The translations under genes and the position numbers were made by a program. The notes under the pieces are model-generated. The model was not told where the DNA came from. It saw only the letters and a program-made list of their open reading frames with translations, and ran no database searches. This document shows, piece after piece, positions 43,122 to 64,000 of a stretch of DNA of 64,000 nucleotides. The DNA lies in contig OZ219790.1 in the NCBI GenBank assembly GCA_964291215.2, forward strand, positions 1,984,001-2,048,000. Direction: 5' to 3'. Position 1 is the first letter of the stretch. Each line of letters begins with the position of its first letter. Origin of the DNA: Alphaproteobacteria bacterium (GTDB taxonomy: Bacteria; Pseudomonadota; Alphaproteobacteria; MPNO01; UBA830).

Positions 43122-43598
43122 ATGGATCAGGCACCGCAGTTCGCCGCCCAGATTTCTCCTTGGCTGACACCGGTCGTCCTGCTGACCGTTCTCGGTCTCA
43201 TGTGGCGCAGCATGCTGCGGCTCGAAGACCGGCTCGGCAAGCGCATCGACGACACCAACAAGCGTATCGACGACACCAACAGGCGTATCGACGACACCGC
43301 CGCCGCGCTCGTCAAACGCATCGACGACACCGGCGCCGCCCTCGGCGCACGCATCGACGACACCAACAGGCGTATCGACGACACCGCCGCCGCGCTCGTC
43401 AAACGCATCGACGACACCGCCGCCGCGCTCGGCGCACGCATCGACGACACCACCGCCGCGCTCGGCGCACGCATCGACGGAATCGACAACCGGCTGCGGG
43501 CGCTTGAGACCGGCCAGGCGGAGATCAAGGGAAAGCTCGACTTCGTCGAAGCATACATCCTCGGACGCAACGCCCCCGGAACCGCGCCTGCGGAGTGA
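43122..43598 (+). CDS. membrane-anchored coiled-coil repeat protein, copy 1 (158 aa)
   Basis: Hydrophobic WLTPVVLLTVLGLMW, then RIDDT-based units 7,7,11,11,7,11,11,11 aa; open frame conserved in 3 copies. Confidence 0.82.
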   Translation: MDQAPQFAAQISPWLTPVVLLTVLGLMWRSMLRLEDRLGKRIDDTNKRIDDTNRRIDDTAAALVKRIDDTGAALGARIDDTNRRIDDTAAALVKRIDDTAAALGARIDDTTAALGARIDGIDNRLRALETGQAEIKGKLDFVEAYILGRNAPGTAPAE

Positions 43599-47995: not shown

Positions 47996-48373
47996 ATGGA
48001 CCAGACACCGCAGTTCGCCGCCCAGATTTCTCCTTGGCTAACACCGGTTGTCCTGCTGACCGTTCTCGGTCTCATGTGGCGCAGCATGCTGCGGCTCGAA
48101 GACCGGCTCGGCGCACGCATTGATGACACCAACAAGCGTATCGACGACACCAACAAGCGTATCGACGACACCAACAGGCGTATCGACGACACCGCCGCCG
48201 CGCTCGTCAAACGCATCGACGACACCACCGCCGCGCTCGGCGCACGCATCGACGGAATCGACAACCGGCTGCGGGCGCTTGAGACCGGCCAGGCGGAGAT
48301 CAAGGGAAAGCTCGACTTCGTCGAAGCATACATCCTCGGACGCAACGCCCCCGGAACCGCGCCTGCGGAGTGA
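47996..48373 (+). CDS. membrane-anchored coiled-coil repeat protein, copy 2 (125 aa)
   Basis: Same termini as copy 1; units 7,7,7,11,11. Confidence 0.82.
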   Translation: MDQTPQFAAQISPWLTPVVLLTVLGLMWRSMLRLEDRLGARIDDTNKRIDDTNKRIDDTNRRIDDTAAALVKRIDDTTAALGARIDGIDNRLRALETGQAEIKGKLDFVEAYILGRNAPGTAPAE

Positions 48374-50783: not shown

Positions 50784-51183
50784 CATCTCGTCCTGTCCGA
50801 TTCACGTCGCAGATCCGGAAGGGTCTGTCCGAGGTTGAGGTTCGCGAAGCCTGAGGAGCGTCCGCTGCGGGATGCGTTGATGGACGACTATCTCGGGTTT
50901 CGCCGTCTGGCGGAGCTGCGCCATATTGCATCTTTCAGGGGGCAGTGGCCTAGCGGCGTGACGGGGCCTTCAAGTGCCGCGACCCAGGGTGATCTTACGC
51001 TAAATTCTGTCTGATTTTTCAAGACAGTACCTGGGCTTTGCGGAGGCGCGGGTTGGTGCGGGAGATTTTTTTACAGTTTTCGCTGACTTTCCTGCACTGA
51101 AGTTGTCATGGTGCGGGGATGTCGGTTCACAAGCACATCGCATCCTGTCCGATTCACGTCGCAGCTCTGGAAGGGTCTGTCCG

Positions 51184-52510
51184 AGCATCCATGTTTCTTG
51201 GCAAGGTTTTTGCGGGTGTCTGTGGTGATGTTTTCTGTGGTTGTCCACAAGCGGTGTGGGGTTTGCTCTGCGAGCGAGGCGACATGAAGCTTGTGGTCCC
51301 GGCGGCGGGTTGCCGTCCATTGGTCACGTGAACGCGGCTACCTTGCCGTCCCCGGGCATGGTAACGTGACCGTCCGGGTTCCAGGTGTCCCAAGGCGGTT
51401 CGATCTCCTTGATGTCGACCTCGACGATGATCTGCAGACATTCTCCCCAAGTCGTGTCGGAGACTGTCGAGACAGTCCCGATCGCGCTCTCGGCAGGGCC
51501 GTGTCTCCTTCGCTCACTCACCGGTGCTTCAGGCAACGCTGCTGTCGCAGCAAGGTGTTCGCCAGAGCTTGCGCATCACGGCGACAATCGCGACTTTGTG
51601 GGCCTTGCCGGCAGTCTTGAGGCGCACCAGGTCCGCGTTGAAGCGTGCCGGTTGCGGCCATGAACAGGAGATCGCGTGGCCTTCGGCGCCCGCCACGGAT
51701 GTGCCGAGCACCGTGGTCGTTGGCGCCACCCCGATCAAGGCTGCCGACGCTGCCGAGTTCGGGCATCCAGCAAAGAAGGGCCGCGGCGGTCACCGGATCG
51801 AGGTCAGGATGGCATACCTCTGCTTGGGATCACCGGCGATCACCGCTTTGATCGCCGCGCCGGCAATGCGATCATCGAGATCGGCCGCCGAGGCCCTTGT
51901 GACGGTCTCGCCATCCTCCTCATCTGCCACCTGCCTGGCGTCGACAAGCGCGGCACCAGGAGATCCTCCAGGCTCTTGAGGAAGGCGGAGCCACAGGCTC
52001 AAGATCGCCCAGCCGATCTTGGCGTCGACGCGGTTGGCCCATCGCCTCGGCGAAGCCCGCAACGGGTTGACGAGAATAACCTCGAAGCCCCGGTCATGAA
52101 GACACTGGTAAACCTTGCGGTGATAGCGGCCTGTCGCCCACTACCCGGCTCACCCCGAGGCCGCGAAGCCACCTGCCCGTGGCGTCGTTCGCAAAACAAT
52201 GCGCCAGATGTCCAGACTGGCTGACCCTTGCTACTATCTTGACCATCGTCCCTTGCTCCTCGCCTTACGATGATACGGGTTCAAACCCAAGTATCCAGCG
52301 AGGGACGTCAAGGGAGGTTGCCACACTCGGACACGGCCCTGTCAAGGTCGAAACGGCAACCTCCGCGGAGATCGTTTGACCCCCTGTGCGTGTTCGCTCA
52401 GGGGAGCGGAATCTCTCTGCAACCATAGCTCTCCCACAGATCCACATTTTCCCGCCCCCAACTGCTGTGGATGATTTCATCATCAAGGGGACAAAACCTG
52501 GTCATATAAG
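51184..52510 (-). mobile_element. IS110-family element, copy 1 (degenerate recombinase ~51520-52246)
   Basis: GVAP...RHIRGGR..PR.LLFMAA, GKAHKVAIVAVMRKL; no TIR; 2-bp core (AG/CT) at both junctions; ~260-bp non-coding left end. Confidence 0.88.
52255..52495 (-). ncRNA. putative IS110 bridge RNA
   Basis: 5' hairpin (52381-52404), target-binding loop (52313-52364) and donor-binding loop (52258-52303), with guides matching target and donor sequences; exact ends uncertain. Confidence 0.75.
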
Positions 52511-55360
52511 GTTGAGGTTCGCGAAGCCTGAGGAGCGTCCGCTGCGTTGATGGACGACTATCTCGGGTTTCGCCGTCTGGCGGGGCTGCGCTATATTGCG
52601 TCCTTCAGGGGGCAGTGGCTGGCGGCGTGACGGGGCCTTCAAGTGCCGCGACTGGTGGATTGGCTGGAAGCCGGAGCAGCAGGGCTTGATCTGACAACAC
52701 GCGACTGCTTGCGGCGCCGGGAACGTTTTCGAACCTTGCCTCCTTCTTTCTTGCGACGCGGCGGCTGGCCGACGATTGGGCCTACGGCCACCAAGTGGCG
52801 GAGACGTTCTGCGATCCGGCGCGTTTTGCGGGCACAAGGCGGCGGGCTGGCGTGCCAAGGGGTTTGCCCGCGGGCGCTACACCGACCCCCATGGCAAGGA
52901 GATTTTCGTTGTGCGGCGCGACGGCTGCTGTCGCAGGCGCTGCGGTAGCGCCGCTTGCCTCCTCGCTCCCCGGGGTTCCGAGGTGATGCGTTCGCTGCGC
53001 GAAGAGTTGGCGGCGATCGAGGACTTCCGCCGCGCAGGAAGCACACGGTGTGCTCACGTTCTCGCCGAGCTTGCGAACATGAAAGGCTGCCTCGCAGCTG
53101 CGCAGTTTGCGCGGTCGCTGTCTCAGGACGAGCTCGAGGCCATCGGCGGAACCCGAGGACGGAGCTGCGCGAGCCGCCCTCCAAGGCGACCCTCCACCGG
53201 GCAGTCGATCGACCCCGAGGCGCTCGAGGATGTACTCGGCCGCGGGCTCGCCCGGGCGCTTGCCGCCGACGGCAAGCGCATCCGCGGCGCTAACCGCAAC
53301 GGCCACCACGAGACCGTGGCTCTCACGCCTCCGGCGCACCCTTCGCGCTGTTGAATTTCGACGACGGTGAGCTGGCGGCCACCTCCTCGAGCGCACCGAT
53401 GTCCGCGGCAAGGTGACCACCCGCACGACGCCGGCGGCGCTGATCACCCGGCGCTGCGGCGCAGACCATGTCTTCTCGGTCAAAGGCAATGCGCCCGAAA
53501 CCTTCGACATCCTCGACGGCATCGACTGGGAGCCAGCGGCCGCTTCAAGGAAGAGTAAGGCCCGCCTCGAGCAGCGCGTGCCGCTCAAGGGCTTGATCAA
53601 CTACCCCGGCCAGATCGCCCGCATCAAGCGCTACCGCGAGCCGCTGGGAAAGAGCGCCAACGGCGCAGCGAGCAGCAACGACTGTACATCATCACCTCGC
53701 TCGATGCGCAACACGCGTCGCCAGAGGAACTGCTGCGGCCGCGGGCTGTGGAAAACATGAACCATCGAGACTGCGTCTTCGGCGAAGACGCCTGCCTGAC
53801 ACGCAAACCGCGCCAGCCTCAACAACATCGCGCTCGCGGTGATCTTCGCCAACCGACGCGAGAGCCTCGCCGAAACACGGCGGCGGCTCGACCGCCGAGA
53901 AGCCGTCGCAGCTCTGATTCGGCCCTGAGCGCCAATGGCGTCCGGCCGATTTTCGGATGCCGCCCACAACCCGCCTACATCCCGAAAACAACCCGCCCAC
54001 GCGCCGGCAACGCCGCCGGCGACGACCGTGGACGGCCCCGAAGCCAGAAAACCCGGCAGGTTGTACAACCTGCCTCCATCAGCAGTCGACAAGATCGAAT
54101 GCAGCGTGAGAAAGTCCTGGCCGCGACCGGTGGCTGGAAGCCGGGGCAGCAGTGGCTTGATCTGATCGCGAACAACGCGCGACTGCCGGTGCTTGCGGCG
54201 CCGGGAACGTTTCCGAACTTTGCCTCCTTCTTTCTTGTGACGCGGCGGCTGACCGACGACTGGGCCTGCGGCCACCAGGTGGTTGTGGCAGAGACGTTCT
54301 GCGATCCGGAGCGTTTTGCGGGCGCAAGGCGGCGGGCTGGCATGCGCTGGGCCAGACCAAGGGGTTTACCCGCGCCAACGGGCGCTGCACCGACCCCCAT
54401 GGCAAGGAGATTTTCGTTGTGCCGCTGCGGCGCGGCGGCTGCTGTCGCGCCCGCAGGCGCTGCCGGGCGCCGCCTGCCTCCTCGCTCCCCGGGGTTCCGA
54501 GGTGATGCGTTCGCTGCACGACGAATTGGCGGCGATCGAGGACTTCCGCCGCGCAGGAAGCACACGATGTGCTCACGTTCTCGCGGAGCTTGCGAACATG
54601 AAAGGCTGCCTCGCAGCTGCGCAGTTTGCGCGGTCGCTGTCCCGGGACGAGCTCGAGGCCATCGGCGGAACCCGAGGACGGAGCTGCGCGAGCCGCCCTC
54701 CAAGGCGACCCTCCACCGGGTCGTCCAGTCGATCGATCCCGAGGCGCTCGAGGATGTGCTCAGCCGCGAGCTCGGCCGGGCGCTTGCCGCCGACGGCAAG
54801 CGCATCCGCGGCGCCAACGGCCACCACGAGACCGTGGCCCTCACGCCTCCGGCGCACCCTTCGCGCTGTTGAACTTCGACGACGGCGAGCTGGCGGCCAC
54901 CTCCTCGAGCGCACCGATGTTCGCGGCAAGGTGATCACCCGCACGACGCCGGCGATGCTGATCACCCGGCGCTGCGGCGCAGACCACATCTTCCCGGTCA
55001 AGGGCGCCCGAAACCTTCGACATCCTCGACGGCATCGACCGGGAGACGGATGCCAGCGGCGCAGCGAGCGACAACGACTGCACCGAGACCGCGTACATCA
55101 TTACCTCACCGCACGAACGCTTACGTACCGCCGGCCGTGCGCGACTCTCGACACCGGGTCGGTTCACGACAACCACGTGAACAATATATGGCCGCATTCC
55201 AGAACCGATAGTACCAAACCGCCGATGCTCTCTCCAATCGGGGATGTCGTCCGCACATAGCAGGCTTCCGTTTGCGGCGGGCGCGGCTATAACACTGGCT
55301 GACGCCAGCCGGACCGAAAAAGCTCTCGCTTTCGATGCCACGCCGTGTCATATTGCCGGC

Positions 55361-55771
55361 ATGGACCAGACACCGCAGTTCGCCGCCCAGATTTCTCCTT
55401 GGCTAACACCGGTCGTCCTGCTGACCGTTCTCGGTCTCATGTGGCGCAGCATGCTGCGGCTCGAAGACCGACTCGGCGCACGCATTGATGACACCAACAA
55501 GCGTATAGACGACACCAACAAGCGTATCGACGACACCAACAGGCGTATCGACGACACCGCCGCCGCGCTCGTCAAACGCATCGACGACACCGCCGCCGCG
55601 CTCGGCGCACGCATCGACGACACCACCGCCGCGCTCGGCGCACGCATCGACGGAATCGACAACCGGCTGCGGGCGCTTGAGACCGGCCAAGCGGAGATCA
55701 AGGGAAAGCTCGACTTCGTCGAAGCATACATCCTCGGACGCAACGCCCCCGGAACCGCGCCTGCGGAGTGA
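55361..55771 (+). CDS. membrane-anchored coiled-coil repeat protein, copy 3 (136 aa)
   Basis: Same termini; units 7,7,7,11,11,11. Confidence 0.82.
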   Translation: MDQTPQFAAQISPWLTPVVLLTVLGLMWRSMLRLEDRLGARIDDTNKRIDDTNKRIDDTNRRIDDTAAALVKRIDDTAAALGARIDDTTAALGARIDGIDNRLRALETGQAEIKGKLDFVEAYILGRNAPGTAPAE

Positions 55772-63041: not shown

Positions 63042-64000
63042 AGCATCCATGTTTCCTGGCAAGGTTTTTGCGGGTGTCTGCGGTGATGTTTTCTGTGGTT
63101 GTCCACAAGCGGTGTGGGATTTGCCCTGCGATCGAGGCGACATGAAGCTTGTGGTCCCGGCGGCGGGTTGCCGTCCATTGGTCACGTGAACGCGGCTACC
63201 TTGCCGCCCCCGGGCACGTGACCGTCCGGGTTCCAGGTGTCCCAAGGCGGTTCGATCTCCTCGATGTCGGCCTCGACGATGATCTGCAGACATTCTCCCC
63301 AAGTCGTGTCGTAGTAGGGAGACTGTCGATACAGTCCCGATCGCGCTCTCGGCAGGGGTGAGGGCCATGAGGGTGTCTCCTTCGCTCACTCACCGTGCCG
63401 GTGCTTCGGTCGACCAGCAACGCTGCTGTCGCAGCAAGGTGTTCGCCAGAGCTTGCGCATCACGGCGACAATGGCGACTTTGTGGGCCTTGCCGGCGGTC
63501 TTGTGGCGCACCAGATCCGCGTTGAAGCGTGCTGCCGAGGTCGCGGCCATGAACAGGAGATCACGTGGCCTCCGGCGCCCGCCTCGGATATGCCGAGCAC
63601 CGTGGCCACTGTCGTTGGCCATCGGCGCCACCCCGATCAAGGCTGCCGACGCTGCCGAGTTCGGGCATCCAACAAAGAAGGGCTGCGGCGGTCACTGGAC
63701 CGGGGATCGAGGTCAGGGTACCTCTGCTCGGGATCACCGGCGATCACCGCTTTGATCGCCGCGCCGGCAATGCGGTCATCGAGATCGGCCGCCGAAGCCC
63801 TTGTGACGGTCTCGCCATCCACCTCATCTGCCACTTGCCTCAACTTGGTCCGCACGTCGACAAGCGCGGCGCGCGATACCAGGAGATCCCCCAGGCAGTT
63901 GAGGAAGGCTTCCTGAGGAGCCACAGGCTCGAGATCGCCGAGCACCGTGCCGATCTTGGCCAGCGCGTCAACGCGGTTGGCCAGATGGCCCAAAGCCTCG
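63042..64000 (-). mobile_element. IS110-family element, copy 2 (runs off the window), inserted in an ISAs1 fragment (62966-63043)
   Basis: Homologous to 51184-52040; junction again ...CCGAG|CATCCATG. Confidence 0.88.

Follow-up and report, generated by a model that had tools for sequence, protein, structure and literature searches.

The systems closest to the element considered here are IS621 and ISCro4 (IS622). In the accessible parts of their descriptions, they share with it a DEDD and Tnp-serine recombinase (PMC11208160, PMC11208158, 10.1101/2025.05.14.653916; PDB 8WT6, 9T56), a bridge RNA in the left end in the order hairpin, target loop, donor loop, a CT core with a 7+2+5 register and a discontiguous right donor guide (PMC11208160), handshake guides, and a promoter at the circle junction, which in our case is predicted. 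Guide changes that are mirrored in the target are described for two natural redirection pairs, ISEc11/ISXne4 and ISEc21/ISMch6 (PMC11187229, accessible part). IS110 guides are carried inside the element itself, and no acquisition step is known for them. In the literature that we searched, mainly the main texts of open-access papers, we found no report of natural guide redirection inside one genome. Supplementary Data 2 of PMC11208160, which we take to bin natural guides, could hold intragenomic cases.

Here we consider a window, a 64,000-nucleotide stretch of a genome that we assign to the Alphaproteobacteria from our reading of its 16S, in which the original prediction had read an IS110 bridge RNA built like that of IS621 around a CT core. 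Bridge RNAs are themselves a known class with a known mechanism, and the value of this case lies in the series of guides and sites around it. The predicted layout is supported by guide-target covariation in this genome and in intact relatives, and also by compensated stems, by donor-guide and handshake patterns and by homology of the recombinase to those of IS621 and ISCro4. We give a probability of about 0.7 to the following reading: this is an IS621-type bridge RNA, its copies carry guides that match their sites, and the guides were likely retargeted by single bases before deletions killed the copies. The features in the window are these:

51184..52510, minus: decayed copy of an IS110-group element (the window copy), 1,327 nt including both CT cores
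52511..52517, minus: left target half, CCTCAAC
52502..52510, minus: CT core and right donor half (TATATGA)
52506-52501, minus: -10-like word TATGAC of the predicted circle-junction promoter
52466..52474, minus: DnaA-box-like word, element position 37
52380..52406, minus: 5' hairpin, truncated by a 15-nt deletion
52313..52364, minus: target-binding loop, shortened by 6-, 5- and 5-nt deletions relative to intact relatives
52345..52353, minus: left target guide TTTCGAC and core CT
52324..52333, minus: right target guide (reads CT-CGGAC; guide itself 52333-52326), then handshake dinucleotide UG
52247..52307, minus: donor-binding loop; an 8-nt deletion takes out the inner stem strand and the first guide base
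52290..52297, minus: left donor guide TGGATA-CT
52262..52273, minus: right donor guide (guide itself 52273-52264) and handshake GC
51518..52246, minus: DEDD recombinase pseudogene with many small deletions
51385..51500, minus: remnant of a 96-aa passenger gene of no named family (limits approximate)
51241..51249, plus: DnaA-box-like word in the right end
51184..51204, minus: -35-like TTGCCA (51204-51199), left donor half ATGGATG, CT core
51177..51183, minus: right target half, CGGACAG
50827..50840, minus: empty copy of the same target site, in an adjoining ISAs1-type fragment
51010..53900, plus: host element, a decayed DruA/DUF4338-like + ISAs1 transposase gene interrupted by the IS110 copy (limits approximate)
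63042..64000, minus: second IS110 copy, its left end outside the window (C1:2048496)

The guide, stem and junction strings quoted in the original prediction are all present in their places on the minus strand. The ends of the element read ATGGATG-CT (51192-51184) and CT-TATATG (52510-52503) on this strand; once joined they give TTGCCA-17 nt-TATGAC, a junction promoter predicted from consensus match only. A scan of the linear sequence for promoters gave one weak site within the donor loop, which was set aside. The right donor guide, as read from the sequence, pairs with the core and 3 nt and, after a 1-nt bulge, with 4 nt more. The flanks of the window copy rebuild CCTCAAC-CT-CGGACAG, the site that stands empty in the adjoining fragment. 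Of the 12 positions of its guide, 9 match this site, and all 12 do so if G-U/G-T wobble is allowed. This exceeds chance: among the 613,313 genomic CT sites, 539 (0.09%) reach at least 9 of 12, and six are fully pairable including wobble. The proposed ISAs1 target is borne out, the local site being in an ISAs1-type gene with an N-terminal DruA/DUF4338-like domain. The second copy in the window has the guide TTCCGTC/CGGGA and occupies another site in the same host family.

The window copy is damaged and, as it stands, cannot serve as the new guide instance that it was proposed to be; its shortened RNA is predicted to have little or no activity, chiefly owing to the deletion in the donor loop. 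Its intact relatives are 1,762-1,968 nt long and have a left end of 318 nt in which several hairpins precede the target loop. The D105-equivalent is the only catalytic motif found in its recombinase pseudogene. The loops named in the original prediction are real; the stems drawn for them are products of 5-8-nt deletions (the target loop has lost 6, 5 and 5 nt and the donor loop has lost 8 nt). The donor stem CCTCGC/GCGAGG appears only because the 8-nt deletion removed the inner strand, and in 14 aligned relatives it does no better than shuffles (140/500). The 7/8 match of the left donor arm holds, but it depends on a G>A change that only two of 65 copies have; 56 read TGGATG. Folding of the 256-nt region, suggested as a check, supports the structure weakly (z=-1.47, with 17 of 200 shuffles as good; z=-2.12 for the two-loop part). 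A fold that buries the guides had been named as an argument against the prediction, and the minimum-energy fold of the naked RNA does pair them in part. The RNAalifold consensus likewise pairs the left donor guide with its own linker, so naked folding does not resolve the donor loop. A search of Rfam returned three weak unrelated matches and no relevant one.

Relatives with an intact 315-aa recombinase, recovered by protein search, provide an independent test. One of these recombinases (P0001) matches PDB 8WT6 with E=2.6e-28 and is homologous to those of IS621 and ISCro4. Intact relatives score 208 and 203 bits for NF033542 (cut-off 140); the DEDD (RuvC-like) and Tnp domains of the IS110 family are present in this genome as well, PF01548 and PF02371 being above cut-off on fragments of one copy. 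From 31 loci in other alphaproteobacterial genomes we obtained 17 unique guide-site pairs, with a score of 147 against 83.5 after shuffling (p<=5e-5). In an alignment of 14 left ends, pairing in the long stems reaches 98.7%, and none of 500 shuffles equals them in pairing percentage or covariation score. The target stem accounts for all 11 two-sided changes; in the donor stem almost nothing varies, which leaves it uninformative on covariation. Donor-guide variants track left-end variants in these relatives too. The loops thus covary with targets and donors among homologs, as the original prediction required. The position of the guide loops in the left end, and ends without a long inverted repeat, place the element in the IS110 group and not in IS1111; the length of the right end is due solely to the passenger gene.

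The assembly that was searched (6.15 Mb) contains 65 left ends and 71 right ends of the element. Target guides can be parsed in 59 of the 65 copies, six truncated or out-of-register ones being left out, and are of 16 kinds. The donor ATGGATG-CT-TATATG is common to all copies, with few variants. When unique units are permuted, guides match their flanks beyond chance in the left arm (21 units, 88 against 66.7 shuffled, p<=5e-5), in the right arm (16 units, p=0.0014) and in both arms together (15 clean sites, 131 against 105, p<=5e-5). Left guide positions 3-7 match the site in 26-39 of 39 copies, while positions 1 and 2 do so in 6 of 39 each. In the right guide, 39-51 of 52 copies agree with the site across positions 1-5, 22 do so at position 6 and one at position 7. 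This profile indicates a 7+2+5 target site as in IS621, with an extended right guide.

Insertion occurs at the CT dinucleotide core in one orientation and with no further target duplication, as in other members of the IS110 family. Empty sites rebuilt with a single CT were found for 21 of the 35 copies that have both junctions. The other 14 either lack an empty homolog or have left and right flanks that belong to different site families, which points to half-match events or to rearrangement of the genome between copies. The suggested convergence of the sites on TCGAC-CT-CGG does not hold, since the guides are themselves variable; among 52 intact right junctions, CGGAC is the reading in only 9. 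Sites A, B, C and E, which belong to two DruA/DUF4338-ISAs1 families, account for 29 of the 52 junctions and an IS1634-like gene (site D) for 14, and the remainder are in other transposase genes or rare sites. The ORFs of 670 and 586 aa that host A, B, C and E reach 93 and 105 bits for NF033564 (cut-off 70) and also carry PF14236, while a match to NF033559 beside one site D locus is, at 27 bits, below cut-off. We observed the fusion of a DruA/DUF4338-like domain to an ISAs1 transposase in two families (C2:460687-462697 and C2:356523-358281). Sites B and E are at equivalent Thr-Ser codons of these families.

On the donor side, too, guide variants go with variants of the left end. The donor guide reads ACA in 4 of 4 copies whose left end is TGT, and in 3 of 35 whose end is TAT. 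In the target loop the first handshake base is C or U, which can pair with donor G7, in 58 of 59 copies; in the donor loop the handshake base is A in 3 of 3 lineages with T7 and G in 8 of 10 with C7 (p=0.035, tallied by hand). These bases fit the rule given in the accessible part of PMC11208158, that is, pairing with the non-cognate position 7.

Retargeting can be examined in clade II, whose compared copies differ by 13-37 substitutions in 1.05-1.38 kb. Among such close copies, guides that differ by one base go with different sites, in transposase genes of ISAs1/DruA-like, IS1634-like and other kinds. The guide-site match is significant for the 25 copies with an assignable site (p=2.4e-4) and also when these are reduced to 18 unique pairs (p=0.0012). 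It is not significant when unique pairs are tested by single arms (p=0.20, 0.11, 0.11), and 15 of the 25 copies have at least one mismatch to their own site within guide positions 4-7 and 10-14. At site B (ATCAC.CGCTC) the three copies form one clade (supports 0.87 and 0.92), and their guides TTGAC.CGGTC, TTGAC.CGCTC and TTCAC.CGCTC come closer to the site sequence by one base at each of two steps. In clade I, copies that are 4-10 substitutions apart occupy four unrelated sites that fit their guide. Minor alleles occur 7 times at 10 guide positions against 23 times at 117 fourfold-degenerate sites (p=0.008, in a test picked after the data were seen). Among the substitutions shared in the ORF, amino-acid changes are under-represented when all copies are taken together (ratios 0.26 and 0.50); within clades, purifying selection is seen at A/T sites only and is not significant at G/C sites in either clade. 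The copies are mosaic, with 1,769 of 2,137 deletion pairs failing the four-gamete test. The units are consequently not independent, and the tree order and all p-values overstate their independence.

Decay of the recombinase, also part of the original prediction, extends to 57 of 57 near-full copies: none has all catalytic motifs (D, E, D, D, S) or a full open frame. By exact patterns the D11-, E60-, D102- and S241-equivalents survive in 2, 7, 7 and 17 of them. No intact copy of the element, and hence no active autonomous one, was found in the assembly. The only intact IS110 ORFs there are two of another subgroup (L017:988-2265, 425 aa, and L018), which stand in an otherwise eroded landscape of insertion sequences. 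Circle junctions number zero in the assembly and zero among five joints listed from the contigs of three runs; contigs drop rare forms, so this absence is no evidence.

Multi-copy insertion sequences in general, including those at 41000-64000 of the window, are eroded here by recurrent deletions peaking at 5-7 nt. The 57 IS110 copies have 162 distinct deletions relative to an intact relative, and ISAs1-type copies have about 27 deletions per kb in 34 alignments. Deletions are shared mosaically between copies, while marker genes are complete. We rejected an assembly artefact as their cause: marker completeness is 99%, and the same kinds of indel occur at high depth in Logan contigs of three runs, which come from one study, may include the source sample and are therefore not independent. 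A search for restriction-site origin gave no strong motif, and microhomology at the deletions is just slightly above chance. The ends of the 5-7-nt deletions are mildly enriched for GT, TC, AT and GC (p 0.002-0.006, uncorrected, 20 motifs). The window also has three copies (43238-43485, 47996-48373 and 55244-55771) of a small ORF whose IDDTNKR-type repeats are 7 aa (21 nt) long; they adjoin decayed methyltransferase-like fragments.

How might such a series of guides have come about? Our reading builds on the anatomy of loops, guides, shared donor and CT core, on covariation, on occupancy of sites according to match and on decay. If the element worked as IS621 does, excision would join its ends to ATGGATG-CT-TATATG and form the promoter (TTGCCA, 17 nt, TATGAC). 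The bridge RNA would then bind the 315-aa recombinase, the donor loop reading the junction and the target loop reading a 14-nt site (7+CT+5), the first two or three bases loosely; RNA-guided strand exchange would follow at CT, with action in trans. Going beyond IS621, we suggest that the guide tolerated one or two mismatches and so could insert the element at similar sites in other transposon families that are abundant. Any single-base change that brought the guide closer to such a site may then have multiplied, because these sites are plentiful and harmless to the host. Erosion of the copies and conversion would have come after. With a single donor common to all copies, each RNA would have been able to mobilize every copy, and the link between guide and site may have been blurred by later recombination and conversion between copies.

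A different history is that the guide variants arose in other bacteria and entered as lineages already retargeted, to be mixed here by conversion. We consider this unlikely as the whole explanation, yet it is a live rival since an intact relative is present in the same sequencing runs: runs X1 and X2 hold both the element and contig pieces of 255, 200 and 166 nt without any difference from the intact relative L043, suggesting a co-occurring carrier. Related genomes also hold several lineages with unrelated guides (two in G041, at least four in G042), and the 52 copies on the tree span 88.5-99.8% identity (gaps ignored). Repeated entry probably explains the deep split between clades I and II and the older copies. 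It does less well with clade II, whose guides are one base apart in copies 1-3% apart and fit this genome's own transposons. Furthermore, each lineage in G041, G043 and G044 keeps one guide, and no close DNA match was found in the 40 related genomes searched (9 candidates scored each) or in plasmids; viral contigs gave distant fragments only. In G041 we also observed one lineage inserted close beside another family copy (L036 from about 3352 onward; L082).

It is also conceivable that the match arose after landing, or that it is mere shared ancestry, and both of these we regard as very improbable. In the former case an off-target insertion would have had its guide corrected from its own flank by template switching or conversion. 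The left guide does repeat the left flank directly, at a distance of about 160 nt, and part-matched and fully matched guides occur at the same site family (B, F). Nevertheless, mismatches at guide positions 1-3 are never copied: the low match at positions 1 and 2 has been given above, and position 3 stays U at sites B, E and F though the target is A. This makes templated rewriting unlikely; the right guide, moreover, is inverted and more than 1 kb from its flank, and donor-only excision, in the accessible parts of 10.64898/2026.08.31.748434 and PMC13626964, makes a match after landing unnecessary. In the latter case one insertion per site family would have multiplied with its host transposon while its guide drifted neutrally. 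A 10-nt junction deletion common to several site E copies would fit this, as would the clustering by flanking sequence of filled hosts at site F (p=0.03) and the prevalence of conversion. At sites A, B, D and E, on the other hand, filled hosts are interleaved with empty ones and do not cluster (a distance filter removed outlying sequences in this test), and matches hold across unrelated sites and genomes. A truncated copy (C1:1320149) has a right guide that fits the empty form of its own site at 5 of 5 positions. As an account of guide function, shared ancestry is largely refuted already.

Occupancy supports our preferred reading of retargeting by single bases: right arm and core match in 20 of 21 filled against 6 of 23 empty hosts at site E (p=2e-6), in 13 of 13 against 3 of 15 at site D (p=1.5e-5) and in 3 of 3 against 2 of 9 at site F. 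The contrast on the right arm is not significant at sites A, B, C and J; at site A the full match is retained in only 3 of 23 empty hosts. Common variants among the empty hosts are CGGCC at site E, CAGGA at site D and a 6-nt deletion at site A.

We can go one step further, tentatively and at somewhat less than even odds, and see in these copies a fossil record of a guide-versus-target arms race among transposons, in which an RNA-guided element exploits other insertion sequences and its guide walks base by base to new sites. It may, with similar reservation, have reached in this way the equivalent Thr-Ser codons of two ISAs1 paralogues; and where the site in a host copy has a mismatch or a 6-nt deletion, that copy may, just as tentatively, have stayed empty for that reason. 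If true, this would show natural retargeting of a bridge RNA without spacer-acquisition machinery. In any event, intermediate guides, filled sites and empty near-miss sites stand together in one genome, as a test set for questions of mismatch tolerance and stepwise retargeting. The intact relatives offer a further bridge recombinase with a naturally long right guide.

Two other features of the family deserve mention. Intact relatives carry the 96-aa passenger gene (e.g. L043:2478-2765). Its product has 1,415 homologs without a named family, no Pfam or NCBIfam family, no plasmid match and hypothetical proteins only as Atlas neighbours; its model is helical (pLDDT 86) with no PDB match. The gene is near an IS110 recombinase in 15 of 79 metagenomic loci, and in others, read by eye, near IS21-like, IS66-like or recombinase ORFs. 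Both ends of the element also have, at fixed places, 9-mers that we take to be putative DnaA-box-like words, one to three per element in eight relatives (L036, L038, L039, L040, L043, L046, L047, L055). With a pattern relaxed after the data were seen, 0.03 are expected in a shuffled element and 141 of 428 genomic matches are inside IS110 copies. In the window copy a second, inverted word (element positions 65-73) is disrupted by an 8-nt deletion. A literature search by title and abstract start found nothing on such words in IS110 ends.

How does this family compare with what is known? Symbionts reportedly also harbor decayed expansions of insertion sequences, with many dead copies and conversion between them as here; erosion in the present case is by recurrent 5-7-nt deletions. 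Unlike IS621, whose RNA is 177 nt in the accessible part of its description, the family has a 318-nt left end with several extra hairpins. It has in addition a naturally extended right target guide, the 96-aa passenger gene and the DnaA-box-like words; its targets are transposase genes and not REP, and its copies in this one genome, all broken, carry 16 guides. Cargo-bearing IS110 elements (10.64898/2026.08.14.744561, accessible part) similarly have a non-recombinase gene inside their ends. The gene here is one fixed small gene outside Pfam and NCBIfam families and not resistance cargo, and it rides also with IS21-like and other elements. Within each of the redirection pairs ISEc11/ISXne4 and ISEc21/ISMch6, protein identity is 72% and the two members belong to different organisms (PMC11187229, accessible part). 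In the present family, by contrast, the steps are single bases between copies 97-99% identical in one genome, and filled and empty variants of the same sites serve as internal controls.
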